Assembly: GCF_964204645.1 (NCBI RefSeq)
Contig: NC_134036.1
Span: forward strand, 9,279,859-9,343,858
DNA length: 64,000 nt
DNA from: Tubulanus polymorphus
Taxonomy: Eukaryota; Animalia; Nemertea
Reading direction: 5' to 3'
Below the pieces are notes generated by a model. It worked only from the letters and a program-made list of their open reading frames with translations. It was not told the origin of the DNA and did not search any database. The translations under genes and the position numbers were made by a program. Each line of letters opens with the position of its first letter. The first letter of the stretch is position 1. Below are positions 1 to 48,424 of this stretch, one piece after another.

Positions 1-50
1 TAAATCATTGAACTTCTAAAATCAATTTTAATAAAAAATATAGTATTAAA

Positions 51-3000
51 ATGGAAGCAAATAAATACTACTGCCCAACATGTAAGATAAGTATAGATAA
101 ATCCCAAAAAGCAAGACACAATAAAACTATAACACATTTAGAGAATAAATTGAAACTAGAATATAAAGATGATATATTAGAAACTAAATTAGAAGAATTA
201 AAGAATGAAAAAGAAACATATAAATGTGATACATGTAATCAATCATTCAGTGATAAAAGATATTATAAAGAACATTTAAAATCTATAAGTCATATTAGAA
301 ATAAGAATAATGATATTTTAGGTGAAGATTATTTTGATAATGATAACGATAAGAAACAGAAGACAATTAAAAGAATAAAAAATAAATTAAACAATAAAAG
401 ACCATACATGGAAGATGTAAGAAATTATATTAATTCATTAGATAATAAAAAAGATATAGAGATAACCGAAGCATTTAAAAGTGATATTGGTCCAGCAGCT
501 ATCGAGTTTAAATTTCATAAAGGTAAAACATTAGAAGAAAATAAAAAACATTTAGAAAATATGAAAGAAATAATAAAAATAATTACAGGTGTTGAATATC
601 CTAAAATTAGTATATCAGTTAAAGTAAAGTTTATAAAATCTGAAGATAAACCAATATATAATATAAATTCTCATTCACAACATATTATATCTAAACAACA
701 TATAGATGATAAATTAGAAAAATGTTATAATGAAATAAAAACTAAAATAGAAGAAAAATATTTTGAAGGATCTGGTTTAATATTTGATGAGATAATATTT
801 ATAACTTTACATGTTTATAACACAAAATATAATAAGTTAACTAAATCAAAACCAATTGATGAAAATAATTTATCATATTATAAAGATGATAGTATAAATG
901 GAACAAGTTATATTAAACTACCATTTAAAACTAATGCTGTAATAAATGTACAAAATGAAGATGATAAATGTTTTCTATGGGCTATAATAAGTTGTTTACA
1001 TCCAACAGAAGATATTACACATAGTTTTAGATTAACTCATTATAAACCATTTGAAAATAATTATAAGATAGATAAGTATCCTGTTAGAATTAAAAACATC
1101 CCCAAAATAGAAAGAGATAATAATCTTAAAATAAATGTATTTGATTTAATTAAATTACCAAATACAAAAGGAAATAATATTAAACATTATACATTAGAAC
1201 CTTTATACCTATCAAAAGATTATGATTCAAACGATGTTATAGATATATTATATTATGAGAATCATTATATGTGGATTAAACAAATAGATTTATTTTTTAG
1301 AACAGAAAGTGATCACCATAATAAAATATATCTATGTAGAAAATGTTTACATAGATTTAGTAATGAAAGTACATTATTAAATCATAAACAACTATGTGAT
1401 AATCATGATTATTGTAAATTAGTTTTACCAAATGAAAAGGATAAAATATTAGAATTCAAAAAATATGATTACAAAAATAAAGTACCATTTGTAATATATG
1501 GAGATTTTGAATCATTAAATAAAGAATTAACAGATAAAGATAGAAAAGATATATAATATAAAAGAAAGAAATTAAATTCTAATGAAAGTGATTATTCAGA
1601 AGACCCACCAAAAACAAATACAATTAAAAAGATTCATCAATCAGCTGCAGCTTTCGGGTTATATATTAAATCTAATTATCCAGAACTAATCGAAAGTGAA
1701 TATTATAATTATAGAAATGAAAATGTTATCAATCATTTTTGTGACTTATTAATTGAATATGAAATAAGATTTAATGAAAAGTTAAATAAAAATATAGAAA
1801 TTATAATGACAGAAGAAGATAAAGAAGAATTTGAGTTTGCAGATAAATGTTATTATTGTGAAAAGATATTTAATTATAAAGATAAAAAAGTAAGAGACCA
1901 TAATCATTTGAATGGAAAGTTTAGAGGCGCTGCACATGAGAATTGTAACTTACAAGCTAAGAAAATTAACTTTGTACCAGTTATATTTCATAATCTATCA
2001 GGATATGATGCACATTTATTTATCAAACAGTTATGTCATAAAATAGAAGAAATCAATAATGAAATAGAAATATTAAATTCAAATAGATCAAAAGATAAAA
2101 TACCAACTTATAAATTTAGAATGTTAGCTAAAACATCTGAGAATTATATATCATTCCAATTTGGTTGTCTTAAGATTTATAGATTCATATAGATTTTTAA
2201 GTAGTTCATTAGATAACTTATCAAAATCATTAGTTGATTATGAATTAAAGATATTAAAAGAATATTACCCAAATAATGATGATTTTCAATTAATGAGATA
2301 TAAAGGAGCAATTCCATATTCTTTCTATAAAAATCATAATGATTTTAATATAACTGAATTATTAAAAGAACAATTTTATGATGAATTAAAAAATGAATAT
2401 GTTAAAGATGAAGTTTATAATAGAACATTGAATATTTGGAATCATTTCAAAATAGAAAATCATGGTCAATTAGTAGATTTATATTTAAAATCAGATGTAT
2501 TATTATTAACCGATATATTCGAAAGGTTTAGAGATGTAAACCTAAAATATTTTAACATTGATCCTTGTCATTGTTATTCATCGCCAGGATTAACATGGGA
2601 TTGTGGATTAAAATTTACAGATATAAAAATGGATTTGTTAACAAATATAGATCAATTACTATTATTTGAAAAATCTATAAGAGGAGGTGTTTCAGGTGTA
2701 TTAGGTGATAGATATTTCAATGTAAATGATAATCCTGGATATAAATTATTATACATAGATGCAAATAATCTTTATGGTTGGGCAATGATGGAACCACAAC
2801 CTTATGGGATGTTTGAAATAACTGAAGTTTTACAAATTGATAAATTTGATTGGAAGAAAAGAATCCTAGATATTGCAGATGATTCAGATATTGGTTACTT
2901 CTTTGTTGTAGATTTAGAATACCCTGAAAATATTAAATTCAAATCTAGAAATCTAGCATATTGTCCCGAACATAAAACTGTTAAACATGAAGAATTATCA

Positions 3001-4083
3001 AATTATCAAAAAAGAATTAAACCCGATAATCATATTCATACTGAAAAGTTAATGGTAACTCAAGAAGATAAATATAATTATGTAGTACATTATAGAATGT
3101 TGAAGTTTTATTTGAATCAAGGAATGATATTAAAAAAAGTACATAGATATATTTCATTCAGTCAATCTAAATGGTTAGAAAAATATATAGATTTTAATAC
3201 TACACAGAGAACTAAATCTAAAACTGATTTTGAAAAAGATTTTTTTAAGTTAATGAATAATGCATTCTATGGTAAGACTTGTGAAAATATTAGAAATAGA
3301 AATGATATCGAGTTAGTCAGTAATGGTAAAAGAATTAGGCATTTACAATCATATCCTAAGTTTATAGGTAACAGAATATTTGATGAAAATTTAGCAGCAG
3401 TTAAAATGAAAAGAACTTCAATGAAGTTCAATAAACCTATTTATGTTGGTGCTGCAGTTCTAGAAATTTCAAAATTCCTAATGTATAAATTTTACTATAA
3501 CATATTACAACCCCATTTTGGAGAAAAACACATAGAAATTCTATACTTTGATACCGACAGTTACATATTAAAGATAAAAACTGATAACATAACAGATGAT
3601 TTAAAAACATTAAAACACCATTTTGATTTTAGTAATTATCCTAAAAATCATGAATTGTTTAGCAATGATAATAAAAAAGTTCCTGGGAAGTTTAAGGATG
3701 AATTAGGTGGTGAAGAAATGATAGAGTTCATTGGTATTAGATCTAAAATGTATTCATATAAAACCAAAACTCATGAAGCTAAAAAGTTAAAAGGAATAAC
3801 CAAAAGTGTAGTAGAAAAAAATATTCATTTTAAAGATTACATCAATTGTATATTTAATGAAGAAGTTAGAAAACATAAGATGAAATGTTTAAGATCTGAA
3901 GATCATGAAATGTATATTGAAGAGATAGAGAAGATAAGTTTGAATCCATTTGATGATAAAAGATATATTTTAGATGATGGAATCCACACAGTCGCCTATG
4001 GTTGCAATTTAGATGAATATATAAAATTCAAAAGAGAAGAAACAAAAGAAAATGAGATTATGAAAAGGATTCTAACGTGTTAA
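51..4083 (+). pseudogene. polB: Protein-primed family B DNA polymerase with N-terminal Zn fingers, OTU-like protease motifs and endonuclease VII-like insert; two lesions
   Basis: Motifs YIDANNLYGWAM, KLMNNAFYGK, YFDTDS; exonuclease YGDFES and FHNLSGYD; CYYC..RDHNHLNGKFRGAAHENCN; QNEDDKCFLW/HYMWIK. Premature TAA at 1554-1556 (Tyr in copy 2) and +1 frameshift near 2170. Confidence 0.93.
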
Positions 4084-4111
4084 TCAATTTCAATAAAAAT
4101 TTGTATAATAA

Positions 4112-4453
4112 ATGGAGAGTAAACAAGTACACAGTGAATTCTTAGATAGAATTAAAGATACTTCAAGCGTCAAATCTGTAGATTATAAATTTAAAAAACT
4201 AACTGAGTTAACAATTCACAAGAAATATTTAATTACTAACATTGAAACAATTACTAATAAATATGGAGATAAATTAGTAATTCATTTAGAATATGAAGGA
4301 TTAAAAGGAAATAAATATAAATTCAGAACTTATTTACCAGATAGATTTCATAGATTATCAAGTGAAGATCTAGAAGAATTATGTTCTGGAGATTTCTATT
4401 TCGTATATAAAGGTAAGAATGAAAAAGGGCACCATGAAATAGATTTCGAATAA
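4112..4453 (+). CDS. Conserved 113-aa protein, possibly an OB-fold ssDNA-binding protein
   Basis: Intact ORF with TAAATG start, conserved in copy 2 (50205-50564). The fold is a guess from its beta-rich pattern and position next to polB. Confidence 0.6.
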   Translation: MESKQVHSEFLDRIKDTSSVKSVDYKFKKLTELTIHKKYLITNIETITNKYGDKLVIHLEYEGLKGNKYKFRTYLPDRFHRLSSEDLEELCSGDFYFVYKGKNEKGHHEIDFE

Positions 4454-4470
4454 GAAAATATGTAAAATAA

Positions 4471-5226
4471 ATGGTAGAATTAAAAGAATACAGAATATTT
4501 GTAGATTCTAGAAGGCTTACAAATTATAAATCTCATAATTTACTAGTTCAATTAGATAGAGAATTTAAGAATTGTGTAGATTTAAAATTAGTTAATATAA
4601 GTTTATGTAATTCTTTTTATAATATATCGGATAAAACTTTTGAACATAGAGGGTTTATGATTTATATGAGAAATAAAGATAAATGGTTTCATATATTTTT
4701 AAAACCAGGATTATATAATTTAGAATCATTAGCGCAGGAAATTAATAGAAGGGCTCGGTTGAAAATCGGGGGCACTTCTGTATTTGAAATTAAATTTAAT
4801 AAAATTGATAGTACTAATAAAATAAGAATAAAGATATCTAATGAACAACATAAATTTATGGTAAACAAACCACTGGCTAAAATGTTAGGAATTAAACCGC
4901 TTACAGTTACTGGAAACGCAGAAGGCAGCTCAAATATAATACCTTTTACACACTTTTATATTTATTGCAATTTAATCGAGCCTACAAAAACTTTCGAAGC
5001 AACTAAAGAAACAATTTGTAGTTCTAGTATACTAAATATTTTACCGCTAAAAAATGTTAAACAATTTGGAACTCAAATAAATTATAATTTAACAGAATGT
5101 GATTTTAAACCATGCATTCCTAAATTTAATAATTTTAAATTAGAAATAAGAAATCATAATGGATACTTAATTGATTTAAATAACTTTCCTGTGATATATG
5201 AATTAGTTATAAGATGTAAAGAGTAA
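4471..5226 (+). CDS. Minor capsid protein (penton, single jelly roll)
   Basis: Pattern IFVDS..., NSFYNI, LKPGLYN, YIYCNLI, LEIRNHNGYLIDLNNFPVIYELVIR is typical of Polinton pentons. Confidence 0.8.
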   Translation: MVELKEYRIFVDSRRLTNYKSHNLLVQLDREFKNCVDLKLVNISLCNSFYNISDKTFEHRGFMIYMRNKDKWFHIFLKPGLYNLESLAQEINRRARLKIGGTSVFEIKFNKIDSTNKIRIKISNEQHKFMVNKPLAKMLGIKPLTVTGNAEGSSNIIPFTHFYIYCNLIEPTKTFEATKETICSSSILNILPLKNVKQFGTQINYNLTECDFKPCIPKFNNFKLEIRNHNGYLIDLNNFPVIYELVIRCKE

Positions 5227-5242
5227 TTTTTTTGATATATAA

Positions 5243-5563
5243 ATGAATATAACGGTTGGACCGAGTATATGTTTTGGATTTGATTTTAAACGTGAGAAAG
5301 AAATGAAATTTAACATTAATGATGTAATAACACATATTAAAAATATTGCATTTTCTAATGAAACAACATTTGAGTATGAAACAACAATTGATAAAGAAAC
5401 TTTAAATATAGAAAAGATTACTAATTTAATTAGAGAATCTTTAAGATTTTATGAATTAGATGAAGATTTTATCATCGATGATATTAAAAAAATAATAATT
5501 GAAATATATGATAATCATAAAACTAGTAATGAAATAAATGTTGAATTAATCATAAATAAGTAA
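5243..5563 (+). CDS. Hypothetical acidic 106-aa protein
   Basis: Intact ORF tightly packed in the element, TAAATG start. Confidence 0.7.
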   Translation: MNITVGPSICFGFDFKREKEMKFNINDVITHIKNIAFSNETTFEYETTIDKETLNIEKITNLIRESLRFYELDEDFIIDDIKKIIIEIYDNHKTSNEINVELIINK

Positions 5564-5602
5564 ACTAAATATTTTGATGATAGAAATTTTTTTGATTAAT
5601 AA

Positions 5603-5824
5603 ATGAGTGATAATAAGTGGATAATAACTGGATTATATAATGGCGCATTACTATCAGTTGGAACTGTTGGTTATTCAATGGTATTAAAAAAAGTATTCAA
5701 AATGGGAAGTGTTAATGTTGATAGATTTGATATAAATGATATTTTAAAGTTAACATTAGCGGTTACTTTATCTAATTTAACTATTGATTATTTAGAAAAA
5801 CAAAAATATATTCCTCCCATATAA
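5603..5824 (+). CDS. Small hydrophobic (membrane) protein, 73 aa
   Basis: Two hydrophobic segments, TAAATG start. Confidence 0.7.
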   Translation: MSDNKWIITGLYNGALLSVGTVGYSMVLKKVFKMGSVNVDRFDINDILKLTLAVTLSNLTIDYLEKQKYIPPI

Positions 5825-5848
5825 ATGCATAATTTCTTTGCTAAATAA

Positions 5849-6271
5849 ATGGCTTCTGCAATTATAACTATTATAGGATCGGCAATTGTTAACGCTTTAG
5901 CATTTACTGGTGGTGGTTATTTATTTAAACATATTGATAAAAATAGTTCATTAGGAGAACAAAGAAGACATAACTTAGCGTTAGAGAAATATAATAAAGC
6001 TGCAGAAGAATATAGAGAAAAAAGACAAAACTATATGGATTACATCAATAAAGAATTATATGATCAGAAGATTTCACATAGAGATTTTCAATCAGTTGAT
6101 GATGCAATGAGTTTATATAACGCGGTAACCAATAAAGAAAAATTACATCTATACAAACCTAAATTATCAGATTATTATACCCCAAGTAAAGAACAACAGA
6201 AATATGAAATAATATGGATTTTAGGTGGAACAGTTATTGTTATATTTGTTGCTTATAAGTTTACTAATTAG
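5849..6271 (+). CDS. 140-aa membrane protein (hydrophobic N-terminus, coiled coil, C-terminal TM)
   Basis: MASAIITIIGSAIVNALAFTGGGYLF and IIWILGGTVIVIFVAY segments. Confidence 0.75.
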   Translation: MASAIITIIGSAIVNALAFTGGGYLFKHIDKNSSLGEQRRHNLALEKYNKAAEEYREKRQNYMDYINKELYDQKISHRDFQSVDDAMSLYNAVTNKEKLHLYKPKLSDYYTPSKEQQKYEIIWILGGTVIVIFVAYKFTN

Positions 6272-6290
6272 TAATTTTTATTCTAAATAA

Positions 6291-6725
6291 ATGGAAGATA
6301 AAGTTGATAGTATTGATATTATTCCTCATGATATAAATAAAACTAAATTAAAAATATATTTAGAAAAACAAATATTAGAATTTGAAAGTGACTTAAAGAT
6401 AAAAAAGAAAAAATATTTAAAAAGTAAAATTATATATTATTTGATTATAAGTGGTTCGGTTACAATTAGTTCTGTAATAACATTTCTAGCAATATTCAGC
6501 CCATTAACACCTTTAGCTATATCAATTGGTGTATTAGGATTAAGTTCAAGTGTTTTAACTGGTATAAGTTCAAAATTAAATATAAAAAGTAATAAAGAAA
6601 AAATTAAAACTAATATAAAAGAAATTAATAAATTAAAGAACACACTAGATTATATAATAAGTTTAAATGGTCATATAACAGTTGAAGAACAAGATAAATT
6701 ATTAAAAGAATTAATAAATTATTAA
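6291..6725 (+). CDS. 144-aa two-TM protein flanked by coiled coils
   Basis: Central hydrophobic hairpin IIYYLIISGSVTISSVITFLAIF / LAISIGVLGLSSSVLTGIS. Confidence 0.75.
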   Translation: MEDKVDSIDIIPHDINKTKLKIYLEKQILEFESDLKIKKKKYLKSKIIYYLIISGSVTISSVITFLAIFSPLTPLAISIGVLGLSSSVLTGISSKLNIKSNKEKIKTNIKEINKLKNTLDYIISLNGHITVEEQDKLLKELINY

Positions 6726-6741
6726 TTTTTTAGTTATATAA

Positions 6742-8070
6742 ATGGGGTTTCCAAAAGCTTTCCAATATAATAAATCAATTAAATATAATATTCCGGCAAT
6801 AGATTTTAAGAAAAATATTACATATAAAAATATAGTTTTAAATTCATTAACTAATTTAGAAATTTATGTTACTGAATCACAGTTTTTTATTTCTAAAATG
6901 GAAAATATATTTAATACATATGAAGTTACTTTTACTCGAGATGAATATAATATATATAAAGTAAAATCTAATATGAAATATTGGCAGAATCAATTAAATT
7001 TTGCTGTTTATTGTGCAACAACAGGATGTGGAATTAGTTGGAATGATCATTTAAATAACTTAGATAAAAATTTGAAGTATTCTGATTTAAAATTAATTCA
7101 CACAATATTTAGATTTCACACATATTTTCAAATCAGAATAATATTAAATGAATTAGAATGTCCTTTACCTGGGTCTAAATATTTTAAAGAATTGGATAAT
7201 AATATTAATATATCCAAGTTTTATAAAATATGTAATGAATTTAATATAAATATTAATTCCGATTTTAGAGCGCATGGTAAATTGCAAGGTGTCGGTGAAC
7301 AGTATGAAATAAAAAGAATTGATTATATGCATAGAATTGGAGCTTATCATAATTATAAAATTGATAATAATAATGGTTGGGTTAATTTCATTTTAGAAAA
7401 TGGTGAAGGTTTTACAAAATCAGGTATACAAAGAATAAATCAATCTATTAGAATTTATTTGATATGTATTCTAGGCGCTCAAGTTGAAACAAGATCCCCA
7501 ATAATTGGAAATGATAACACTTCATTCGATGCGCAGAAACAGTTTAAAGTTTTATTTGAAGATTCAATTCATAATGATAAAAATAGATCGATTCCAGAAA
7601 ACATTATAAGATATCAAAATTATTTAGATAAATCTCATGTAAGACTTAATTATTGTATAGGCCCTAATCTATTAATTATTTCTAATGATTTAGTATTGAA
7701 GATGGGAAATATAATTGGTTATAATAATCTAATTAAAACTGCAACAATAAATAATTCATTTGGATTAAATGATATAAATAAAAAGATTATTACTGCCCCA
7801 AAATTAATGGAAGGTGAAAAAAATAAAAAACATATTCAATCAACAGAAACTAAAACTAAGAATATTAAATTAAATAATGATTCCAAAATAAAAGATTACA
7901 ATACATCAGAAAATGGTGCCGTACGGCACCCACACGGTGATAATAGAACTGATAAAATTCAACATGATATAATTAAACAAAATGATGATAATAAATCACA
8001 TGAAAATACTAAATTAGCTATAACTTGTATAGGAATTGTAATCGGAGGAATATTATATTTTAAATTTTAA
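6742..8070 (+). CDS. Conserved 442-aa protein with C-terminal membrane anchor
   Basis: Long intact ORF with core MKYWQNQLNFAVYCATTGCGISW conserved in copy 2 and C-terminal LAITCIGIVIGGILYF. Confidence 0.8.
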   Translation: MGFPKAFQYNKSIKYNIPAIDFKKNITYKNIVLNSLTNLEIYVTESQFFISKMENIFNTYEVTFTRDEYNIYKVKSNMKYWQNQLNFAVYCATTGCGISWNDHLNNLDKNLKYSDLKLIHTIFRFHTYFQIRIILNELECPLPGSKYFKELDNNINISKFYKICNEFNININSDFRAHGKLQGVGEQYEIKRIDYMHRIGAYHNYKIDNNNGWVNFILENGEGFTKSGIQRINQSIRIYLICILGAQVETRSPIIGNDNTSFDAQKQFKVLFEDSIHNDKNRSIPENIIRYQNYLDKSHVRLNYCIGPNLLIISNDLVLKMGNIIGYNNLIKTATINNSFGLNDINKKIITAPKLMEGEKNKKHIQSTETKTKNIKLNNDSKIKDYNTSENGAVRHPHGDNRTDKIQHDIIKQNDDNKSHENTKLAITCIGIVIGGILYFKF

Positions 8071-8086
8071 TTTTTTTATTATGTAA

Positions 8087-9760
8087 ATGGATGTAGAAGG
8101 TGGAGAAGATATTCCATTGGATCCTTTAGATGAACCTGGTATAAGTGATGAACAACAACCTGATTTTGATGAAACAAGTTTCAGTAATGATAATAAAACG
8201 GCATATAATACTAATTTAGGTGAAGATGATGATTATGATGATGATCCCGAATTACGTGAAAAATTAAATAAATATTTAGAAGCTCCTGAAAGGGGTAGAA
8301 TTTCAACTAGAACAGAAAGAAAAGAATTTATGAAACTATTAGTAAAACAACAAGAAAAATATCCTGATAAACCTATGGAATTATATAAAATGAAATCTAG
8401 AGTAACAGATACAATTGTTAACGAATTACTACCAATAGCTGTAATAGATGAAATTGATACTGAAGATATTGTAGAACAAATTTTTAAAGATGACCCATAT
8501 TTCACGAATAATTTAGAATTTAAAAATGATTCATGGTATTATAATCTTGAATTAAATAGGAATACTGTATCAATTCAATTATCTAGAATGGGTCAAGAAA
8601 ATATTTTTGAACCTGGAATGCGAGCATTATCTACAATTGAAGGTTCAAAAGGTGGTAGAGAATTTCTCAGAATTATATGGAATGCAATCGATAGAATAAA
8701 TGAAAAAGAACCAATTCCTAATATTGATATAAACAAATATTCACCATTTAAAAATCCAAATCCAAATCCTACTGATTTTGATCCAGAAATGGAAGAGAAT
8801 AGAAATCGATTAGATAGATTAAGATCTTCAACACCCGAAACATCGAGAAGAGACACTCAACAAATTGATAATGATTCAAGTAAATTACAATTAGAAAAAC
8901 AAATTGATAGATTAAGAGATTCAGAAGAAGAAATGAATAGTACTGGAATAAATCGACTGCAATATTTACTAGAAAAAGGATTATTTGATTTAACTGATGA
9001 TGAATTAGAAGCATTTCCTGAACAAACACGTAGAGAAATTAAAGGTACGCAAGAATCAGCTGATAAAATTGCGCATGATAAAAGTATAAGAGATTTTAAA
9101 ATTAGAACTTTAGAAAAAGAATTAACTGATAAAAATAAAGAAATAGAACAATTAAAATTAGATAGAGATAATAAAGTTATTGAAGAAATTGAATTTAAAA
9201 AAAGAAATGCATATTTAGAAAAAGAAATTGATGATTTAGAATATAACATAGAATTACAAAAAGAAGAAATTAAATTATTATTAAAATCATATGATTATAA
9301 TATTAATAGATTAAAAGTTATTTTTAAAGATTTGTTGATTAAACCAAATTCTGAAATATCATTAAAAGACAGAATAAAGTTATTATTTAAATTAGAAGGA
9401 ATAACAATTCTTTCAATTCTAACAGCTGTAACTATGTTATTTACAACAATTGGTTTAGCAATATCAAATGCTTTGAAATCTACTCCTACTCCAAATAAAC
9501 CAGATAAACCTCCAGGCAATAATTCTATACAAGATAAAGTTAAAGATGGTTTAAAGAAATTAGCAAAATATTTATGGGAACTATCAAAGAAATCTGCTGC
9601 AGCCTTACCAGGAGTTATTGCTTCAATTGTTGGTTTTATATTGAAATCTGCAGGAAACATTATTAACTTTGCTGCTGAACATATTATTTTATTTTTAATT
9701 ACAGTTGTAAGTGCTATTATTTTTGGTTTAGTAAATATGATATCAAAAAATATCAAGTAA
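8087..9760 (+). CDS. 557-aa coiled-coil protein with multi-helix hydrophobic C-terminus (candidate membrane-active virion protein)
   Basis: Acidic N-terminus, long heptad region, three C-terminal hydrophobic segments highly conserved in copy 2. Confidence 0.8.
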   Translation: MDVEGGEDIPLDPLDEPGISDEQQPDFDETSFSNDNKTAYNTNLGEDDDYDDDPELREKLNKYLEAPERGRISTRTERKEFMKLLVKQQEKYPDKPMELYKMKSRVTDTIVNELLPIAVIDEIDTEDIVEQIFKDDPYFTNNLEFKNDSWYYNLELNRNTVSIQLSRMGQENIFEPGMRALSTIEGSKGGREFLRIIWNAIDRINEKEPIPNIDINKYSPFKNPNPNPTDFDPEMEENRNRLDRLRSSTPETSRRDTQQIDNDSSKLQLEKQIDRLRDSEEEMNSTGINRLQYLLEKGLFDLTDDELEAFPEQTRREIKGTQESADKIAHDKSIRDFKIRTLEKELTDKNKEIEQLKLDRDNKVIEEIEFKKRNAYLEKEIDDLEYNIELQKEEIKLLLKSYDYNINRLKVIFKDLLIKPNSEISLKDRIKLLFKLEGITILSILTAVTMLFTTIGLAISNALKSTPTPNKPDKPPGNNSIQDKVKDGLKKLAKYLWELSKKSAAALPGVIASIVGFILKSAGNIINFAAEHIILFLITVVSAIIFGLVNMISKNIK

Positions 9761-9829
9761 ACCATGATATCAAAAAATATCAAGTAAACCATGATTAAAA
9801 ATAAATAATTAATTTTTTTTGTTAAATAA

Positions 9830-11077
9830 ATGAGTGGGAGTTATATAAGTCCTTCTAAGATTTCTAGAATATCTAATGCTATTAAAGCAGAAAGATCACA
9901 TCATATAATTACTCATAACCCTTCAAATATTAATCCCGATGAAACGTTATATGTTAGAATTCCTCGATTAACACAAAATACTTTTTATGTTCCAAATAGT
10001 ATTTATTTATCAGCTGATATAAAAGTAATCGGTAATAATAATAATTATGTCGTTGATAATGTTGGAAGATATTTGATTAAAAAGTTAACAATAAAGATTG
10101 GTCCGGAAACAGTTTTCTCATTAGATGATTATAATTTATTTATGCATTATAAAGATTTATGGTTAACTAAAGAAAATAGAAATAATATGATATTTCAGGG
10201 TATTCAATCAGAAAACCAAAATAAATTAAGATCAGAAGCTAATAGCGCAATATTAACAAATGATGTAGATAAATTGATAAAAAGTATATATGGAAGTAAA
10301 TATAAAATTCCATTAGATTTTGAATTGATAAATAATAATGCACCTTTATATAAATACGCAATTCAAGAAGATATTATATTTGAGATAACATTTGCTCCTG
10401 TAAATGAAATTGTATTATCTAGCGTTAATAAAGATATGAGTTATAAATTATCGAATATATGTTTAGAATATGATACAGTAACTGATGAAAATATTTCAAG
10501 TATAATTCAAATTCAATACAATCAAGGGTTTTCATTATTATATGATTATATTGATAAATTTAAAACTGTAACTATTAATGCAAATGATGAAATAATTAAT
10601 GAGAATATTAACTTCCCTAGAAGATCTATTAAAGGTATATTAATATTTTTTACCATTGGAACGTATACTAATGGCGCAATAAATGTTGATAATTATTATA
10701 ATCCTGAAATAACAAAAGTAGAAATAACTATCGAAGGAATAGCGAATAAAATATTTTGTCAAGGAATGAGAATGATTGATCAATGGGTAGAAATTAAAAA
10801 ACATTTTATGAATGAAAAAATAAAATCATTTGAAAATTGTAACATTAATCAAATTGATTATTATACCGGTAATAAATATGCATTATGGTTAGATTTTAGA
10901 ACAACTGAAGATAATTCATTACATGGTTCTGGAAAAAAATTACAAAATACAAAAGATGGAATACAATTATTCATGACAAAGAAAAAGGGAATCAAAAATT
11001 TTAAAATGCATATTTATATTTTATCTGACGCGCAATTAAATATTGTAAATTCACAATTAGATAGTGTTATGTATTAA
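9830..11077 (+). CDS. Major capsid protein (double jelly roll)
   Basis: 415 aa, beta-rich, with NPSNINPDETLYVRIP, NVGRYLIKKLTIKIG, INENINFPRRSIKGILIFF, LWLDFRT, LHGSG; strongly conserved in copy 2; size and context fit. Confidence 0.85.
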   Translation: MSGSYISPSKISRISNAIKAERSHHIITHNPSNINPDETLYVRIPRLTQNTFYVPNSIYLSADIKVIGNNNNYVVDNVGRYLIKKLTIKIGPETVFSLDDYNLFMHYKDLWLTKENRNNMIFQGIQSENQNKLRSEANSAILTNDVDKLIKSIYGSKYKIPLDFELINNNAPLYKYAIQEDIIFEITFAPVNEIVLSSVNKDMSYKLSNICLEYDTVTDENISSIIQIQYNQGFSLLYDYIDKFKTVTINANDEIINENINFPRRSIKGILIFFTIGTYTNGAINVDNYYNPEITKVEITIEGIANKIFCQGMRMIDQWVEIKKHFMNEKIKSFENCNINQIDYYTGNKYALWLDFRTTEDNSLHGSGKKLQNTKDGIQLFMTKKKGIKNFKMHIYILSDAQLNIVNSQLDSVMY

Positions 11078-11109
11078 AATTTTAACTTTAATAAAAATGT
11101 ATATAATAA

Positions 11110-12099
11110 ATGGAAGGAGGTAAAGTATATAAACATATTCCATACATCGATACACATGAAAATAATGATGGTTTATATTATGTAATACCTTGTAATATAG
11201 CATTGATATTTGATCCTATTTTTAAAAATTATAAAACTAAACTGATAGAAATCGATAATAATAAAAGTGGTGTTGTTGATAATTTAAGTAATGTAATACC
11301 TACTACACCTATAATACCTACTACTACACCTGTAATACCTACTACTACATCTGTAATACCTACTACTACATCTGTAATACCTACTACATCTGTAATACCT
11401 TCTACATCTAATAACGTAATACCTTCTACACCTGTAATACCTTCTACATCTAATAATGTAATACCTTCTACATCTAATAATGCAATAATATTAAATGTTA
11501 GTGAAAATAGAAATTATTGTGGTTATTGTAATGGTGAATTTTCAAACGCTCCATCAAATTGGAATAAACATATGAATACAAATTCACATATTACTAATGT
11601 TATAGAACGTGTTGGCAAAAAAGAATTTATAGAACACCCATTTAGATATGTTACAAAATTTGTTTCAAATAAAAAAGTAAATGGTAAAGAATTATATAAA
11701 GATTTATTATTAGCAACACCTAATAACGATGAATTAGATTTAACCGATGCTAATGAAATATTAGGATCAAACACTGTAAATGAAATATTAGGAGCAAACA
11801 CTAATAAAGATAATAATGAAAATGGTGCCATACAGCACCCACAAAGTGATATAGTTACAGATAAACATATTGATAATAAATATTCTATGAAACATGAAGA
11901 AGAAACTATTGATGATATAATAGAAAGGATGAATAAGCATAACAATGAAACAACTATTGATGATTTGGTAAAAAAGGTGAAAAAGGTGGAAAAAAATTAT
12001 AAAGATGTTGATGTAGATTCGGTAGAGCAGTTAAATATGTTGTTAGGGTCGTCTGATAGTGAAAGTGATTCAGAAATTAATTATCTAACACTCGAATAA
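11110..12099 (+). CDS. Variable protein with VIPTTTS/VIPSTS repeats and a C2H2 (matrin-like) Zn finger
   Basis: Tandem repeats at ~11290-11480; CGYC...WNKHMNTNSH. Confidence 0.75.
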   Translation: MEGGKVYKHIPYIDTHENNDGLYYVIPCNIALIFDPIFKNYKTKLIEIDNNKSGVVDNLSNVIPTTPIIPTTTPVIPTTTSVIPTTTSVIPTTSVIPSTSNNVIPSTPVIPSTSNNVIPSTSNNAIILNVSENRNYCGYCNGEFSNAPSNWNKHMNTNSHITNVIERVGKKEFIEHPFRYVTKFVSNKKVNGKELYKDLLLATPNNDELDLTDANEILGSNTVNEILGANTNKDNNENGAIQHPQSDIVTDKHIDNKYSMKHEEETIDDIIERMNKHNNETTIDDLVKKVKKVEKNYKDVDVDSVEQLNMLLGSSDSESDSEINYLTLE

Positions 12100-12238
12100 T
12101 AAAGGTTGAAAATTATATAAAATAATAGTAAATAAAAAAAGGTTTTAATTATTTAAGGTATCTAATAGGGTATCAGGTATTAGGGCATCTAATGGGGTAT
12201 TAGGTATTAAGGTATCTAATACATAGGTATACAAATAG

Positions 12239-12853
12239 TTATTTTATAAATTTATATTCATATGGAAATTGTAATCTCATAAGTAATTTGGAACCTTTAT
12301 TATTCTTTAATTTATTCATATATTCATCATGTAATTCAGTAGGTATAATTTGATTTTCTTCTAATGATTGTTGCATAGATTTTTTATCTTTGTTATAAAA
12401 TAAAACTAGAAATCTTATATTCTCTCTAAAATCTTTCACAATTGAATTATATTTTTGATTTAAAACCCATGTTGTTATCCCAAAATGTCTACCAGAGAAA
12501 GCTAAATAACATAACTCACTTTCTCTAACTTTTGAATCATGTAAATTTGCGCAATCATCAATAATAAATAATGTATTAGATCCTTTATAAATATCTATTG
12601 CAATTTTTATACAATTATCTAAATTATCTTTCACTGTTTTAGAATTTAATATAATAAACTTTTTATCTTTAAAAACTATATCTCTATTATACGTTTCATT
12701 CATTTCATAAGTAGGACAGAATAATATTATATTATCAAAATGATTCTTATAAATAGTTTCTAACAAGTCTAATATGAAGTGTGTTTTACCACAATTTGTA
12801 ACTCCAGTAACTAACATATTATGTGGTTCAAATATAAATAAATCTTTATTCAT
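12239..12853 (-). CDS. A32/FtsK-like DNA packaging ATPase
   Basis: Walker A GVTNCGKT, Walker B FIIDD, and GRHFGITTWVLNQ. Confidence 0.92.
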   Translation of the reverse strand: MNKDLFIFEPHNMLVTGVTNCGKTHFILDLLETIYKNHFDNIILFCPTYEMNETYNRDIVFKDKKFIILNSKTVKDNLDNCIKIAIDIYKGSNTLFIIDDCANLHDSKVRESELCYLAFSGRHFGITTWVLNQKYNSIVKDFRENIRFLVLFYNKDKKSMQQSLEENQIIPTELHDEYMNKLKNNKGSKLLMRLQFPYEYKFIK

Positions 12854-13931
12854 TTATTCTTTTAATTTTACTAGATAAAATCCATTCATTGAATTTATCA
12901 TCATATCCTTTATATTTCACCAAAGAATACTTTTTTCCTTTAAGAGTTTTAGTTTTTAATACTTTTTCTATTTTGTATTCTATTTCATCTGGATTTGGTA
13001 CAAGTGATAATTCTTGTTCATAGAAATAACCTAATATTTCTTCATCTTTTAGATCTTCTAATTTATAAACAAATGGTTTAGTTAATATTATCTTTTTAAT
13101 TTTAAATATTTCTTCAGTAAAATTAGGGGTATAACCTTTATAAAATGTTTTTCTATATTTAGAAATTCTAACGTGTTGTCCTATTTTAAATTTAGGTTCT
13201 CCAAAATCATGTGTAACAAACGCACCATATAAATTATTCCAAACTATTTCTGAATTTTCTTCTTTTCTAGCTTGTATAGGTTTCATATTTATAGAACTAT
13301 GTTTAGAATTATTATAACCTTTAACTAAATCATCTAACACATCGATATATTTATATGTTTCATTAGCGGTGAAATATTTCCACATTCTAGTTTTCAATGT
13401 TTTATTAAATCTTTCTATAACGGATGCTTTTTTATCTGAATGTGTTGAAAAATATTCTACATCGTTATCAGATAATAGTTTTTTGAAATGTTTGTTATAA
13501 AATTCTTTACCTTCATCAAATTGTATTTTATCTGGGATAGCTTCTTTAAATATTAATTTGAAAGAATTTGTAACTTCTATACCAGTTTTATTTTTAATCG
13601 GGATACTCCATGCGTATCTACTGAATATATCTATAACATTTAGTATCCAAAAATATCCTTTGTTATATTCTTCTAAGTTTTTCATGTCAATTAAATCAGC
13701 TTGCCATTGTTGGTCAATATATGAAACCATTACTTTTCTTGTTAAATATTTTTTATCCATCTTTTTATGAATTTGATATGTGGGTTGATTTTGTAACCAT
13801 GATTTTAATTCACTATATTTTATTTTTTCTTTATCAGATTTAATTTTATCCCATAATTCTGAAACGTTAGAATATGATACTTCACGTTCTGGGTTGTAAT
13901 ATAAATCTCTCAAATATTGTTCTTTTTTCAT
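12846..13931 (-). CDS. Retroviral-like DDE integrase with C-terminal chromodomain
   Basis: WQADLID, IDIFSRYAW, QFDEGKEF, VIERFNKTLK; chromodomain YKIEKVL...LVKYKGYDDKFNEWI. ORF intact. Confidence 0.95.
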   Translation of the reverse strand: MKKEQYLRDLYYNPEREVSYSNVSELWDKIKSDKEKIKYSELKSWLQNQPTYQIHKKMDKKYLTRKVMVSYIDQQWQADLIDMKNLEEYNKGYFWILNVIDIFSRYAWSIPIKNKTGIEVTNSFKLIFKEAIPDKIQFDEGKEFYNKHFKKLLSDNDVEYFSTHSDKKASVIERFNKTLKTRMWKYFTANETYKYIDVLDDLVKGYNNSKHSSINMKPIQARKEENSEIVWNNLYGAFVTHDFGEPKFKIGQHVRISKYRKTFYKGYTPNFTEEIFKIKKIILTKPFVYKLEDLKDEEILGYFYEQELSLVPNPDEIEYKIEKVLKTKTLKGKKYSLVKYKGYDDKFNEWILSSKIKRINE

Positions 13932-13937
13932 CTTATT

Positions 13938-14333
13938 TTAATCCATTAATAATAATCTTGGTTTATTTTCAATGACTTTATCATTTGACTTATTTTCTGG
14001 TATGATAGGTTTATTGTCATTGGAATCATCTTTATCATCAGATTTGAATTTTGATTTATATATTACACCAGATAATATAATAACTGTTACTAATCCAATT
14101 GTAATATATAATTTATAATTACTTCCAGCATTAGAAGAATTAGATGGATTATTATTTGAATCAATACCACCGTGTGGGTGCCGTACGGCACCATCAGATA
14201 ATTTCTGTGATTCATTTATATCAGTTAATTTCTTTTTCTTAGCTTTTTTTAATTCTGATGATCTTTTACCTAATTCTCTTGCCCATTTAATTTGTTTCTC
14301 GGATCTAGCCTTTTTCTTAACTCCATCACTCAT
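13938..14333 (-). CDS. 131-aa basic protein with one TM segment
   Basis: Lys/Arg-rich N-terminus and LYITIGLVTVIILSGVIY; ortholog in copy 2. Confidence 0.75.
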   Translation of the reverse strand: MSDGVKKKARSEKQIKWARELGKRSSELKKAKKKKLTDINESQKLSDGAVRHPHGGIDSNNNPSNSSNAGSNYKLYITIGLVTVIILSGVIYKSKFKSDDKDDSNDNKPIIPENKSNDKVIENKPRLLLMD

Positions 14334-14928
14334 TTATTTTAGTTAATTTTTGTTCTGATTCATTTTCTGTTTCGACGTTTGGTTGTAGTACATCTGTTTC
14401 GTTCTTACCTGATTTATATTCCATAGGTTTGATGTTCGAAAATGTTATGACGCCAGTAGAAATCAATGTCATAACCGATCCTAATTGAAATGAAGCATAA
14501 CCGACCCATTTTTGTAATTCAGTCATAACTAAGTAGTCATTTTTCAAATCATTATATAATTTATTTTCATCATCAATTGGTATTAACTGGTTACATAATT
14601 TTGAATAACATTTGACAATACCATTCGAAATAGAATCATTTATTTTAGATAATCTTGCCTCTTCATAAATCTTAAAATATTTTATTACTTTTTCTTTATT
14701 CATATTATCTAATTCTTGAAAAGTTGTTGTTTTACCAATAAACTCTTTAGTTTTTCCACTCGCAATCAATAGTTCTAGATGATGCTTACAATATAAATAG
14801 TATTCATAATCTATATTGTTATTAACTTGAATAGAATTAGAAACAACTGTATCCTTATTATCACTAATACCTAAATCATCTAATGTTTTTTCAATATCAA
14901 TACTATTCTTATTAGATTTCTTTGACAT
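14326..14928 (-). CDS. Conserved 200-aa hypothetical protein
   Basis: Intact ORF with an ortholog in copy 2; 8-nt overlap with the next gene. Confidence 0.75.
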   Translation of the reverse strand: MSKKSNKNSIDIEKTLDDLGISDNKDTVVSNSIQVNNNIDYEYYLYCKHHLELLIASGKTKEFIGKTTTFQELDNMNKEKVIKYFKIYEEARLSKINDSISNGIVKCYSKLCNQLIPIDDENKLYNDLKNDYLVMTELQKWVGYASFQLGSVMTLISTGVITFSNIKPMEYKSGKNETDVLQPNVETENESEQKLTKINE

Positions 14929-15176
14929 TTATATTAGAGAAATTTAATAAGAATAGTATTATAAGTATTATAAAATGATACTAGCTAGTTAAAGTTAAAG
15001 AATTCTAGTATTGACTACTGATACTAGCTATTTGAATTTAAAGAATTTCTATTCGGATCTATTCAAAATATAAAGTATTCTCTTTTTGAAAAGAAAATAT
15101 TAAAAATATAATAGAATTCGATAGCTAGTTGAAGTGATTGTTTTTTAAATACTTTTTATTTAAAATCTATTATTCT

Positions 15177-15839
15177 TTAACCACTCATTAAAGACTCAAC
15201 GTATTGTTCATTATGTGTTGAATTCCATAATTCAATAAATTTTTTTACTTTTTCCAGTTGATTCAAATATAACTGTAAATCTATTCTATTAGATTTGATT
15301 TGATTTTCTTTCTTTTCTAAGGTCTTAAATTTTTCCAATTCCAAATAAGTTTTTTATTGTATTCATCGTTCCTTTTTAAATTTAGATATTGGTAACACGT
15401 GATCAATATGAAAGTATTCACCGTAATTATCTATATTCATTTTATCATCGAATTGAAATATAATCCATGATTTGAGAAATTCATCTGAACAACCCAATAA
15501 ATTAGATAGTGTTTCTGAATATGTTTCTTTGTTAAATAATTGTGTTAATCTAGACCGTAAACATTGTTTCAATCTAAAATTAAGATCTGTTTGATATCTT
15601 TCTCTCATATATTCTGTCATATAATCATTATAAGATTCTCTATTATCTTCTCGATATTGTTTGGTATATAGTTTAATGCAAGTTTTACAGTAATATTGAA
15701 AACCATCTTTGCTAATCTTACGCTTACTAAATTCTGTTAATGATTTATCTAATTCACATTTAGAACATTTCTTGTAACATATATTTATAACACCAGTGTT
15801 ATTTGTAATATTGATAGTTTGTGGTTGTTCTGGTTCCAT
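15177..15839 (-). pseudogene. HNH endonuclease with N-terminal CxxC..CxxC Zn ribbon, frameshifted near the 3' end
   Basis: CSKC...KDG...CKTC, FHIDHVLP, and downstream WNWKNL frame as in copy 2; ends YVESLMSG*. Confidence 0.8.
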
Positions 15840-15974
15840 TTATTATACGTATTTTTTTACTAAATTGGTTAATAATTTATAATCCTCTTCTATTTCTTCG
15901 ACTAACGTTATCCTTTTTCATTCCTAGCTGCTTTTGATAAGTTTTTTCGATTCCTTGATATATAAATAATACAA

Positions 15975-16295
15975 GCGGCCGGCCATTTATGGCCGGTTTT
16001 GCTTAATGCGCATGCGTTAAACATAATTATAAATTCATTCTATAAATTCTGTAAAATAGAAACAACACATGCGTTACATGCGGCCATTTATGGCCGGTTT
16101 TGCTTAATGCGTATGCGTTAAACATAATTATAAATTCATTCTATAAATTCTGTAAAATAGAAACAACTGAATATAGAAAATTCAAACGCATTCATGTTCT
16201 CGTCACATACGTTACATGTGTCAAATGCGTCACATGCGGCCATTGATGGCCGGTTTTGCTTAATTCGCATGTGTTAAACATAATAGAAACGACTG
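15975..16295. repeat. Three ~100-bp tandem GC-containing repeats in the non-coding arm of copy 1
   Basis: CGGCCATTTATGGCCGGTTTTGCTTAATGCGCATGCGTTAAACATAAT at ~15980, ~16081 and ~16237. Confidence 0.85.
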
Positions 16296-17248
16296 AACAT
16301 AAAAATTCACAAATCAGATTTACACAATACATTATACAAGTTGTTCAGTCATTTCTTCTAATACATCATTTGATTTCTATAAATACAATTTATAATTACA
16401 AACATTTTTTCAATTGCTGGTAAATATTTAACTACATCAACAAATGTTAAACTAAATCATTGGAGTCTTAATGTTTTTGAAATTCTTATATTTCTTCTTC
16501 GATCTTTTAGCGATTCTATTGGTTTGATATCCACCGGTTTGTGCGTGTTTAATTTGACACCAGTTCCACAGTTGTATATAGGTTTATTTGACTCTGGGCC
16601 TAGTTCCACAGTTATCTAAAAGATATATCAAAATATAAATTGCTACACATAAATATATTTAAAGGTTTCATATTTAGCGGCCTTAATAAACAAAAACTGT
16701 ACTTACATTTAACTCGCGAACTGTAAACTGTATATGATGTGGCGTTTATGAGACTGTTATGATACAGCGTTTATGAGAATATCCTGGTTATGACACAATG
16801 TTTATGAGACTATATCCGTTGAAAAGCGATCGATATATGCTGGTATTTCGTTTTGTGTGTATACGCAACTAATTGCTTTTCACCCGTAGACTGTCAAGCG
16901 TCTGATGTGCGCGCCTATTTATACTATTCTATGCTCAGAAACATCTAGATTAAGTGTGTTGAGACTTGCGAATTATGAGATTTTTGATTGGTTAGAGCTT
17001 AGTTGTCCAGAAACATCTAAAAAGCGCGTTGAGACTTGTAAATTATGAGATTTGTGATTCGCTAACGTCCGCCGTATGATGTATAATACACAACGCGTTG
17101 AGACTTGTAAATATAGTTGAAAAAAATCAATAATAAAGGCATTTAGATCAATGAAATTAATTAACTCTTTACAATTGAAATATAAGCTGGTAACATATGT
17201 TTACTAGAGCTAATACAACCAACTATATAGCTGAGTATTATCAGGCGT

Positions 17249-17422
17249 TTATAACGATTCAACATATTTTTCACTATATGTTGAGTTCCTTAATTCGATA
17301 AATGTCTTTGCTTTAACCAACTGGACTAAAAACAAATGTGTTCTAGTTTTATTGTGTCTTGCTTTTTGGGATTTATCTATATCGATATTACATGTTGGGC
17401 AGTAGTACTTATTTGCTTCCAT
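17249..17422 (-). CDS. 57-aa chimeric mini-ORF: PolB N-terminal Zn finger fused to a copy of the HNH C-terminal tail
   Basis: Hand translation MEANKYYCPTCNIDIDKSQKARHNKTRTHLFLVQLVKAKTFIELRNSTYSEKYVESL*; below the ORF-track size cutoff. Confidence 0.55.
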   Translation of the reverse strand: MEANKYYCPTCNIDIDKSQKARHNKTRTHLFLVQLVKAKTFIELRNSTYSEKYVESL

Positions 17423-17706
17423 TTTAATACTATATTTTTTATTAAAATTGATTTTAGAAGTTCAATGATTTATATTTTATTCATATATATATGAATATGA
17501 GTAATAGGGGTTTAGTTGTTTCATATCAAAGGTCGAAAGGTTGAGGTTGATAAATTTTCCAAATGTTAAAATAATAATAATTTCTACTTGAATTAGGAGT
17601 GTACGCGACTAATTCAAGTAGAAATTATTGTTATTTTAACATTTTGGAAAATTTCTCGGGCTCGACCTTTCGACCTTTGGTATGAAACAACTAAACCCCT
17701 ATTACT
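17334..17706. repeat. Right terminal inverted repeat of copy 1, ending in a 207-bp near-perfect palindrome (17500-17706)
   Basis: Matches the reverse complement of 1-139; arms 17500-17596 and 17609-17706 are complementary. Confidence 0.9.
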
Positions 17707-38276: not shown

Positions 38277-38626
38277 AGTAATAGGGGTAATGGGCTTTCA
38301 GATCAAAGGTCGAACGGTCGAGCTCATTAAAAAACAAAACATTAAAAGTAATTTAAAACTATAATATATTTTCATAACCGTGTGCATTTTATATTATAAC
38401 TAAATATTTATTCTAAGATATCAATAATTTAAAAAGCATATTGATTTATTTACAATACACAAATTCATATAATCAAATATATTCAAATAATAATAATTAT
38501 TCTATTATTCAACTGAAATACACACGGTTATGAAAATATATTATAGTTTTAAATTACTTTTAATATTTGTTTTTAATGAACTCGACCATTCAACCTTTAA
38601 CCCGAAAGCCCATTACCCCTATTACT
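38277..38626. repeat. Terminal fold-back of copy 2 (arms 38277-38389 and 38516-38626, AT-rich spacer)
   Basis: Arms aligned by hand. Confidence 0.9.
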
Positions 38627-38706
38627 CTTAAAATATTCATATAAATGAATAACATTTAAATCATTGAACTTCTAAAATCAATTTTAATAAAAAATTTAGT
38701 ATAGAA

Positions 38707-38910: not shown

Positions 38911-39039
38911 TTTGATATCAAGGATCCGATGTTTATACTAGAACATGATTCTATTTGAACCTATATACATTCTATGTAAAGAGCTATGGAATAAATCTAT
39001 AAATTCACAGCTGTTACAGCCGTTACGCCGAGACATTAT

Positions 39040-42149: not shown

Positions 42150-42155
42150 AATAAG

Positions 42156-48408: not shown

Positions 48409-48424
48409 TTACATAATACAAAAA

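Follow-up and report, generated by a model that had tools for sequence, protein, structure and literature searches.

How did the same short, GC-rich palindrome come to lie in frame in three different genes of one transposon? This question is raised by a stretch of 64,000 nucleotides from the nemertean Tubulanus polymorphus (contig NC_134036.1, positions 9,279,859 to 9,343,858; the whole stretch is hereafter called the window, and its own numbering is used throughout), which contains three copies of a Polinton/Maverick, a virus-like transposon. In a previous sequence-only reading, a palindromic insert of 27 bp was described in three genes of the first copy and was interpreted either as a tiny mobile palindrome tolerated in coding DNA or as a dispersed signal for protein binding or packaging. 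Here, we report that the three inserts are independent, derived insertions of one defined sequence. This sequence is probably a mobile, non-autonomous element, far shorter than the known transposable elements with which it was compared.

Three filled sites and their empty counterparts

All three inserts are located in copy 1 of the Polinton, as follows (aa, amino acids):

7915..7941, + strand: site 1, 25-bp core (7915-7939) followed by AT (7940-7941), in a 442-aa gene (6742-8070); adds GAVRHPHGD after residue 391
11824..11850, + strand: site 2, decayed core (11824-11848) followed by AT, in a variable 329-aa gene (11110-12099); adds GAIQHPQSD
14166..14192, - strand: site 3, core (14168-14192) followed by GT (14166-14167, reverse strand), in a 131-aa gene (13938-14333, - strand); adds GAVRHPHGG

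Sites 1 and 3 were compared with copy 2 and site 2 with copy 3. The corresponding empty sites are the following, with a slash at the junction:

48548..48562, - strand: empty site 1 in copy 2, TCAGAAGAT/ATAAAAACTGAT; junction between 48554 and 48553
41913..41933, + strand: empty site 3 in copy 2, TTATCTGAT/ATTGATACGAAT; junction between 41921 and 41922
61543..61563, - strand: empty site 2 in copy 3, AATGAAAAT/ATAGTTACAGAT; junction between 61555 and 61554

The inserted unit is a 25-mer, GGTGCCGTACGGCACCCACACGGTG, which consists of a perfect 16-bp palindrome, GGTGCCGTACGGCACC, and a 9-nt tail, CACACGGTG. In the whole window, the palindrome was detected without mismatches at 7915-7930 and 14177-14192 and with two mismatches at 11824-11839, and no matches were obtained in 100 dinucleotide-preserving shuffles of the window. 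The full 25-mer is identical at sites 1 and 3 (25/25) and matches at 21 of 25 positions at site 2, in agreement with the earlier description of two intact copies and a decayed one. Except for self-overlap of the palindrome, no further copies with up to eight mismatches are present in the 64 kb. GC content of the core is 72% (18/25). The Polinton copies have about 24% GC and are set in DNA of 35-37% GC without long open reading frames (ORFs); thus, the view of the unit as a GC-rich sequence in an AT-rich genome holds for the carrier Polinton and not for the adjoining host DNA.

Relative to the paralogous copy, the net insert at each of the three sites is exactly 27 bp, which corresponds to nine codons on the sense strand, placed between codons. 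In the sense direction, the junctions read GAAAAT, 25-mer, AT, AATAGA... at site 1 (empty form GAT/ATA), GAAAAT, 25-mer, AT, ATAGTT... at site 2 (empty form AAT/ATA) and TCTGAT, 25-mer, GT, ATTGAT... at site 3 (empty form GAT/ATT). All factual details of the sequence-only reading were confirmed. All empty sites conform to RATAT (GAT/AT, AAT/AT and GAT/AT at sites 1, 2 and 3, respectively), AT is duplicated at sites 1 and 2 with GT present at site 3, the added codons encode peptides similar to GAVRHPHG(D/G), and the alignments gave the same insert-free peptides in copies 2 and 3: SE-DIKTD for site 1, NEN-IVTD for site 2 and LSD-IDTN for site 3. Opposite the AT, 25-mer and AT of site 2, copy 3 has a single AT and a clean gap of 27 bp. 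In a global alignment of copies 1 and 2, 120 indels were observed, including the two 27-bp inserts at sites 1 and 3; these were the GC-richest of all indels of at least 20 bp (0.63 and 0.70; the next was 0.57).

Five of the six reading frames of the unit are open, and only frame +2 makes a stop codon, TGA, using the AT that follows. The unit is not a tiny intron, since its canonical form contains no AG and hence no GT...AG pair. It is also not a ciliate-type excised sequence, as it is not bounded by TA. The ORFs are open under the standard code.

The inserts are derived

A total of 109 database relatives were found for the 442-aa protein, and 41 homologues were aligned (42 rows). None of the 41 had the insert peptide. 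The five closest relatives (63-67% identity by BLASTP, 67-72% in the alignments) read TSEN, a clean nine-residue gap and then I(K/T)TD. For the 131-aa protein, no relatives were obtained by a word-index protein search; a HMMER scan gave eight matches, seven of which were used for the alignment after a 4698-aa low-complexity protein was left out, and the insert peptide was absent from all seven. Relatives of the 442-aa or 131-aa protein were not found in IMG/VR. GC-rich palindromes were likewise absent from four related Polinton loci of metagenomic origin (L002-L005, about 22 kb, 20-23% GC). The possibility raised in the earlier reading, that outgroup copies might reveal the motif to be ancestral, was therefore answered by its absence from both sets of homologues and from these loci.

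The inserts lie in hypervariable linkers of the three genes, and their positions in the 442-aa and 131-aa proteins are similar. Site 1 falls in columns that form a hypervariable, partly repetitive linker ahead of a C-terminal hydrophobic helix, and site 3 in a variable linker before a hydrophobic helix. Going by alignment variability alone, the linker of the 442-aa protein may be disordered. In distant homologues of this protein (P0014-P0052 and others, on contigs of up to 1.8 Mb), the same linker contains tandem peptide repeats of the AMNKEVQ type. Within the family, this linker generally acts as a hotspot for changes in length.

Sequencing reads provided an additional view of the Polinton family. 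They came from runs of the same organism in two studies and from a marine metagenome run (small word share); four runs were compared with the window, and for run X6, which belongs to another study, 12% of the run was read. In X6, 45 reads diverge exactly after position 7914 and then follow the empty form of site 1 (ATTAAAACTGAT...). Four joints that bypass site 3 and a few codons next to it were represented by 38 (21+17), 18 (5+13), 7 (4+3) and 2 (0+2) reads, or 65 counts, and such joints were also present in contigs of X2 and X3. Filled sites were detected as well. At site 2, all 11 X6 reads and one X3 contig had TG instead of AA at 11844-11845, a variant that is nearer to the canonical tail than the window copy. 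In X1, a gapless 151-nt contig spans 14050-14197, including the left flank, the whole site 3 insert and only 5 nt past it. Read support for the inserts, on which the sequence-only reading had made its proposal depend, was thus obtained for site 2 and for the left junction and element of site 3; filled site 1 was not visible among the matches listed. It is clear that empty and filled members of the family coexist.

The reads also contain information on the family as a whole, which is highly multi-copy in the carrier organism. Over 7500-14600, read depth was 140-290 per strand in conserved genes and approximately 8-13 in the variable gene and in some stretches of the 557-aa gene. Joints and loose ends were many, indicating numerous structural variants of this Polinton family.

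Empty sister sites, empty reads and the absence of the insert from 41 and 7 homologues together indicate that the inserts are derived rather than ancestral. One could propose instead that the palindrome is an ancestral cis signal (packaging, origin or protein-binding) which was precisely lost by copies 2 and 3, or that it is an artefact of assembly. Palindromes are typical binding sites, and the non-coding end region of these Polintons contains further GC-rich palindromes. However, ancestral presence would require three exact 27-bp deletions, which is very unlikely, and both the homologues and loci L002-L005 lack the motif, as do the empty family copies in the reads. An artefact is contradicted by independent data, since sites 2 and 3 are present in reads of the other study and in a contig from a metagenome. 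This explanation is largely refuted, and we regard it as the least probable of those considered here. The second interpretation in the sequence-only reading, a dispersed binding or packaging signal, is not supported by these comparisons either: with the motif missing from copies 2 and 3, the four related loci and other family copies in the reads, the element family does not need it. The first interpretation, in which coding DNA tolerates a tiny mobile palindrome, agrees with every test made here.

Host genes and age of the inserts

When the filled 442-aa and 131-aa proteins were compared with each other, a match with E = 2e-7 was obtained, which reflected the insert together with low complexity and a transmembrane helix. 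With the natural empty versions from copy 2 (the tail of the 442-aa protein and the 131-aa protein), the BLASTP E value was 1.1, which rules out a shared protein module spread by conversion. Apart from the insert, the three host genes are not related to one another, as judged from their sequences.

Between copies 1 and 2, the ratio of nonsynonymous to synonymous divergence (dN/dS) was 0.06 for the polymerase, 0.08 for the ATPase and 0.09 for the integrase, and it was 0.23 and 0.34 for the 442-aa and 131-aa genes, respectively. The variable 329-aa gene gave a value of 1.15, from an alignment too poor for the figure to mean much. The low ratios imply that most divergence of the 442-aa and 131-aa genes arose under purifying selection, and a stop-free, in-frame insert is of the kind that can survive in such genes. 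Two further observations were made in this comparison. The dN/dS value of the 557-aa gene was 0.88, and synonymous divergence (dS) was distributed as a mosaic, with approximately 0.10 for the 442-, 557- and 131-aa genes and 0.25-0.48 for the polymerase, 113-aa gene, ATPase and integrase. Such a mosaic is what recombination between Polinton lineages would be expected to produce.

Inserts at sites 1 and 3 are identical, which makes them young compared with their host genes, whose synonymous divergence is 10%. Site 2 probably represents an older insertion: all four changes in this copy fall within the three CpG dinucleotides of the unit, and the variant in X6 departs from the window copy at one of these CpGs, a pattern that fits methylation-linked decay. 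Observed/expected CpG ratios were 0.64-0.71 in all three Polinton copies (regions 1-17575, 38500-54700 and 59900-64000), compared with 1.07-1.15 in flanking host DNA (17600-38400 and 54800-59900). CpG depletion in the Polintons suggests methylation aimed at these elements or, alternatively, a viral compositional signature.

Target sites, frame and orientation

Copy 1 contains 373 ATAT sites, 313 of which are coding, and 122 of these 313 place the AT/AT junction between codons. If ATAT sites were used at random, three of three inserts in sense orientation and phase 0 would be observed with P = 0.007, and agreement of two inserts with the first in orientation and phase has a P value of about 0.04. 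Orientation of the unit tracks gene direction, which in turn tracks a switch in GC/AT skew near 12 kb. Because all three coincide, strand bias linked to transcription cannot be separated from that linked to replication.

The three empty sites also have ACNRAT in common, 7-12 nt downstream. In 38 kb of Polinton DNA, RATATWNNNACNRAT occurs only at the three empty sites and at the right junction of filled site 2 (11848). A phase-matched permutation over RATATW sites gave P = 0.04-0.05 for RATATWNNNACNRAT, a pattern that was derived from those same sites, and we take it as a hint of an extended insertion target.

A probable mobile hairpin and alternative explanations

The explanation that we favor, and to which we assign moderate likelihood, is that a 25-bp GC-rich hairpin inserted three times at RAT/AT in one Polinton lineage, as a mobile, non-autonomous element dependent on a predicted HUH/Rep-type enzyme acting in trans. 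In such a scheme, the unit would have been copied from a source element and not made locally. Its fixed 27-bp footprint and its five stop-free frames out of six would allow it to persist in genes through an added nine-residue peptide, and the older copy at site 2 would be in the course of decay at its CpGs. More tentatively, the unit may move as a single-stranded hairpin handled by the trans-acting HUH/Rep-type enzyme.

Several features of the unit point to a single-strand process of the HUH/Rep type, namely its asymmetry, its hairpin, the direct repeats at its ends and its single orientation. Folded as single-stranded DNA, the unit has a 6-bp stem, a GTAC loop and a free 9-nt tail, with a predicted energy of -5.7 kcal/mol. 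Its ends are not terminal inverted repeats (TIRs) (GGTGCC... versus ...CACGGTG), and GGTG is present at both as a direct repeat. If the insert is read as 27 nt, that is, T, the 25-mer and R placed between A and T without duplication, all three junctions would be exact. In this form, the unit would resemble the 3' end of a Helitron or a bacterial repetitive extragenic palindromic (REP) sequence.

A number of observations weigh against the favored explanation. The unit was found in three copies only, all within one 17.5-kb element, and it was absent from 20 kb of sister copies and about 26 kb of host DNA in the window. The exact 25-mer had no matches in IMG/VR, and a 25-mer with Y/R at CpG positions had none in Joint Genome Institute (JGI) metagenome contigs. 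Neither a source element nor a candidate enzyme was found in the window, and no transposase domain was detected in 21 stop-to-stop frames of host DNA (19 of the 43 listed frames in 17600-38400 and two from 56183-56727). Hairpin stability does not exceed that of shuffles with the same composition (z = -0.69), and the 27-nt form has TG...GTGR termini, not the TC...CTRR of Helitrons. Insertion at A^T without duplication and insertion with a 2-bp AT duplication each require one difference among 27 positions; at equal cost and with three copies, these two readings are inseparable. With n = 3, the signals for orientation, phase and an extended target are weak (0.007; 0.04-0.05 post hoc), and the same holds for the bias in frame and orientation that the sequence-only reading had proposed to check, which was found in all three inserts (sense strand, phase 0). 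Finally, the right flanks of sites 1 and 3 contain extra substitutions near the junction, suggesting that the insertions may not have been perfectly clean.

The last observation is also relevant to a different origin of the inserts, as non-transpositional filler. Here, repair of double-strand breaks at three sites would have copied one short template that is abundant elsewhere in the genome, for example from a satellite, from the end of a transposon or from an RNA. Besides the substituted flanks, the short length of the inserts and the AT microhomology at the junctions are in line with this idea. However, repair filler is normally variable in length, whereas the 25-bp boundaries are identical at sites 1 and 3 and the same at site 2. 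In addition, no template is present in the window, and no Rfam family matches the unit or any other part of it. We consider this origin improbable.

It is also conceivable that the inserts are excision footprints of a larger cut-and-paste transposon whose ends gave rise to the palindrome. Some DNA transposons leave short footprints that are partly palindromic and bordered by a target duplication, and a hypothetical perfect palindrome of 34 bp would have the 25-mer as its right 25 nt. Yet independent repair events would not yield 25/25 identity at two sites along with matching boundaries at another. Moreover, the left part of the unit, GGTGCCGT, would be internal to the putative terminal repeat and could not stay on the flank in a simple footprint. 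The probability of this explanation is very low.

A stronger version of the favored hairpin scheme can also be formulated, in which a hairpin of 25-27 nt is a "nano-transposon" that acts in the manner of a bacterial REP sequence or a bare Helitron 3' end, parasitises the Polinton, inserts strand-specifically into the single-stranded DNA of protein-primed, strand-displacement replication and grafts nine-residue peptides onto viral proteins. The orientation of the unit does reverse near 12 kb, together with gene direction and GC/AT skew. It would be the smallest mobile DNA described in a eukaryotic setting. We view this version as doubtful.

Database searches with parts of the unit gave several matches that we attribute to chance. 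A CpG-degenerate 20-mer had one match in IMG/VR, in a phage contig of 57-63% GC. The 16-mer had seven matches, all in contigs of 45-74% GC and with unrelated flanks.

Relation to known palindromic elements

The unit was compared with several families of short palindromic or hairpin-containing elements. As described in passages of PMC8811140, yeast mitochondrial GC clusters are, like the unit, short GC-rich palindromes in an AT-rich genome, with terminal repeats of 2-3 nt at their junctions. In-frame insertion of such clusters in a protein-coding gene, yeast var1, which results in protein length polymorphism, is also described there, and the AG/TAG terminal repeats are taken as target duplications (PMC8811140). 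The comparison included the "byp" elements of Magnusiomyces. Spread of GC clusters by gene conversion has been proposed. Corresponding features in our data are the GC-rich core (72%) in an element of 24% GC and the AT repeated at two of three junctions. However, GC clusters are mitochondrial and numerous and have AG/TAG repeats, whereas the unit is 25 bp long, resides in a nuclear virus-like transposon, was seen in three copies and has AT. GC clusters are also longer, approximately 30-60 bp.

These similarities bear on another explanation, in which a double-stranded 25-bp element, similar to a GC cluster or to a MITE (miniature inverted-repeat transposable element), inserted at ATAT with a 2-bp AT duplication by means of a DDE enzyme or gene conversion. 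AT is indeed duplicated at two sites, with GT at the third, and the 16-bp palindrome could act as two abutting 8-bp inverted repeats. The GC clusters offer a precedent for GC-rich palindromes with AG/TAG target repeats that are found in frame in a gene, var1, according to the cited part of PMC8811140. On the other hand, the unit is asymmetric, with a 9-nt tail that has no partner and termini that are not inverted repeats. It has one orientation relative to the gene at all three sites despite the symmetric ATAT core, and the duplication at site 3 is imperfect even though the core is intact (25/25). Overall, we judge a double-strand process to be rather unlikely and retain the single-stranded hairpin as the preferred explanation.

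Classical MITEs have TIRs at both ends and a fixed target duplication. The unit does not belong to this class, because its termini are not inverted repeats and its duplication is perfect at two of three sites only. A parallel of a more general kind is found in Pandoravirus salinus. The MITEs of this virus are of the classical type, with TIRs, a TA duplication and lengths of hundreds of bp, unlike a 25-bp hairpin in coding sequence. Like the unit, they are small non-autonomous transposons inside a viral or virus-like genome (PMC4495683).

Rickettsia palindromic elements (RPEs) are similar to the unit in that they lie in frame in unrelated ORFs, add a conserved peptide and leave the ORF intact, as reported in the cited part of PMC10969869. 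From the same account, RPEs are about 150 bp in length, bacterial and divided into ten families with dozens of copies (PMC10969869), compared with a unit of 25-27 bp, six times shorter, in a eukaryotic Polinton. Thus, the analogy with RPEs in the sequence-only reading is appropriate for the in-frame, peptide-adding behaviour; size and bacterial origin (PMC10969869) exclude membership.

Bacterial REP sequences, REPINs and the ends of IS200/IS605 elements share with the unit a length of 20-40 bp, a GC-rich hairpin and, in the parts of the literature cited, the lack of TIRs (PMC3733652, PMC3337134, PMC6006769). In these sources, REPs are thought to be handled as single-stranded hairpins by REP-associated tyrosine transposases (RAYTs, HUH Y1) (PMC3733652, PMC3337134, PMC6006769). 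REPs have a GTAG/CGTC tag, are extragenic, occur in hundreds of copies and are accompanied by a RAYT gene; the unit, in contrast, has GGTG ends and is intragenic at three of three sites.

Transposons of the Rep type, in the cited portions of two reports, generally insert in one orientation into short targets and have hairpins at one or both ends (PMC10288648, PMC6544945). Among them, Helitrons are described there as inserting at A^T in one orientation, with no duplication or TIRs and with a palindrome of 16-20 bp near the 3' end (PMC6544945, PMC10288648). The 16-bp palindrome of the 27-nt unit ends 10 nt before its 3' end, and A^T fits all three sites, as equally does a 25-nt unit with a 2-bp duplication. 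However, the termini of the unit are TG...GTGR (GTGA/GTGG) instead of TC...CTRR, and no RepHel gene was seen in the window. Short non-autonomous Helitrons measure 162 bp or more in the cited part of PMC6544945, compared with 27 nt for the unit. We rejected Helitron membership on the TG/GTGR termini.

The unit is a member of none of the families compared, as RPEs, GC clusters and REPs each have at least one defining feature that it lacks. Among the titles and abstracts listed in our literature searches, none dealt with a palindromic insert of this small size in genes of Polintons/Mavericks.

Should the unit indeed be mobile, transposable DNA in eukaryotes would extend down in size to a single hairpin. 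It would also imply that invasions by GC-rich palindromes, which occur in AT-rich mitochondria and Rickettsia, are possible inside nuclear virus-like transposons, and would add a further layer of parasitism in the form of a mobile element within a mobile virus-like element. With its 27-bp footprint and nearly stop-free sequence, the unit would represent a natural peptide-inserting mutagen of viral proteins. Discovery of a cognate enzyme would provide a eukaryotic candidate for the counterpart of REP-associated HUH transposases. In addition, filled and empty sites provide a clean marker with which lineages and recombination can be followed across the organism's many Polinton copies.

Carrier Polinton and other features of the window

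The Polinton copies in the window are as follows:

1..17575, + strand: Polinton/Maverick copy 1, left end cut by the window; carries all three inserts
38493..54711, - strand: copy 2, inverted; 328-bp TIRs; no motif
59900..64000, - strand: copy 3, partial, inverted and cut by the window end; no motif

These boundaries are approximate, since AT-rich ends leave the exact Polinton termini imprecise. Assignment to the Polinton/Maverick group is based on a protein-primed polymerase, pPolB (2161-4083 in copy 1; PF03175, E = 9.5e-15), an rve integrase with a chromodomain (12846-13931, - strand; PF00665, E = 6.7e-9), an A32-like (A32/FtsK) ATPase (12239-12853, - strand; PF04665, E = 2.1e-12) and the TIRs of copy 2, whose arms (38493-38820 and 54384-54711) are 328 nt long and 97% complementary. 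With regard to the capsid proteins and maturation protease of Polintons, Pfam and PDB sequence searches with the 442-, 557- and 415-aa ORFs gave no match.

Each of the two larger copies has genes that are split in it and whole in the other. The first ORF, which encodes a 703-aa protein with a zinc finger and an endonuclease VII domain, is whole in copy 2 (52386-54497) and split in copy 1 (51-2192). Conversely, copy 1 has a whole polymerase gene and copy 2 one that is split in two (50594-52265). The 442-aa gene is likewise whole at 6742-8070 in copy 1 and split at 48425-50187 in copy 2. Split genes in both copies indicate that the integrated copies are decaying now.

A short similarity between the unit and the TIRs was also considered. 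The tail of the unit has an 8-mer, CACACGGT, in common with a subterminal TIR motif (38521, 54676 and 38377), a likeness that we rejected as not significant, being one independent match among approximately six in the window. The TIR carries CACACGGTTAT, which includes this 8-mer, about 28-35 bp inside the terminus (38521-38528 and 54676-54683). The third, inverted copy of the 8-mer (38377-38384) is located just outside the left end of copy 2, suggesting a fragment of another TIR.

Tandem repeats of 101-113 bp were observed at 15980-16167 (with a third, degenerate unit to approximately 16280) and at 39750-40005, in non-coding DNA close to the Polinton's right end. Each repeat contains a GC-rich palindrome whose relative position is constant and whose sequence differs between copies (CCGGCCATTTATGGCCGG in copy 1, GCGCGCA(C/T)GAATGCGCG in copy 2). 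Both arms of this palindrome changed together, as would be expected if a dimeric binding site, or an origin, were co-evolving with its protein.

A small GC-rich island was also present in copy 2, near the end of the 113-aa gene. It results from a local duplication of GGGCACCA (50222-50245, compared with 4410-4430 in copy 1) that involves a 6-bp indel, GGCACC. The island has GGCACC in common with the palindrome of the unit and is otherwise unlike it. Host DNA in the window contains two tandem repeat arrays, a 19-bp repeat at 28316-28840 that makes a spurious 191-aa ORF and an 8-bp repeat, with 10-bp variants, at 56886-57191.

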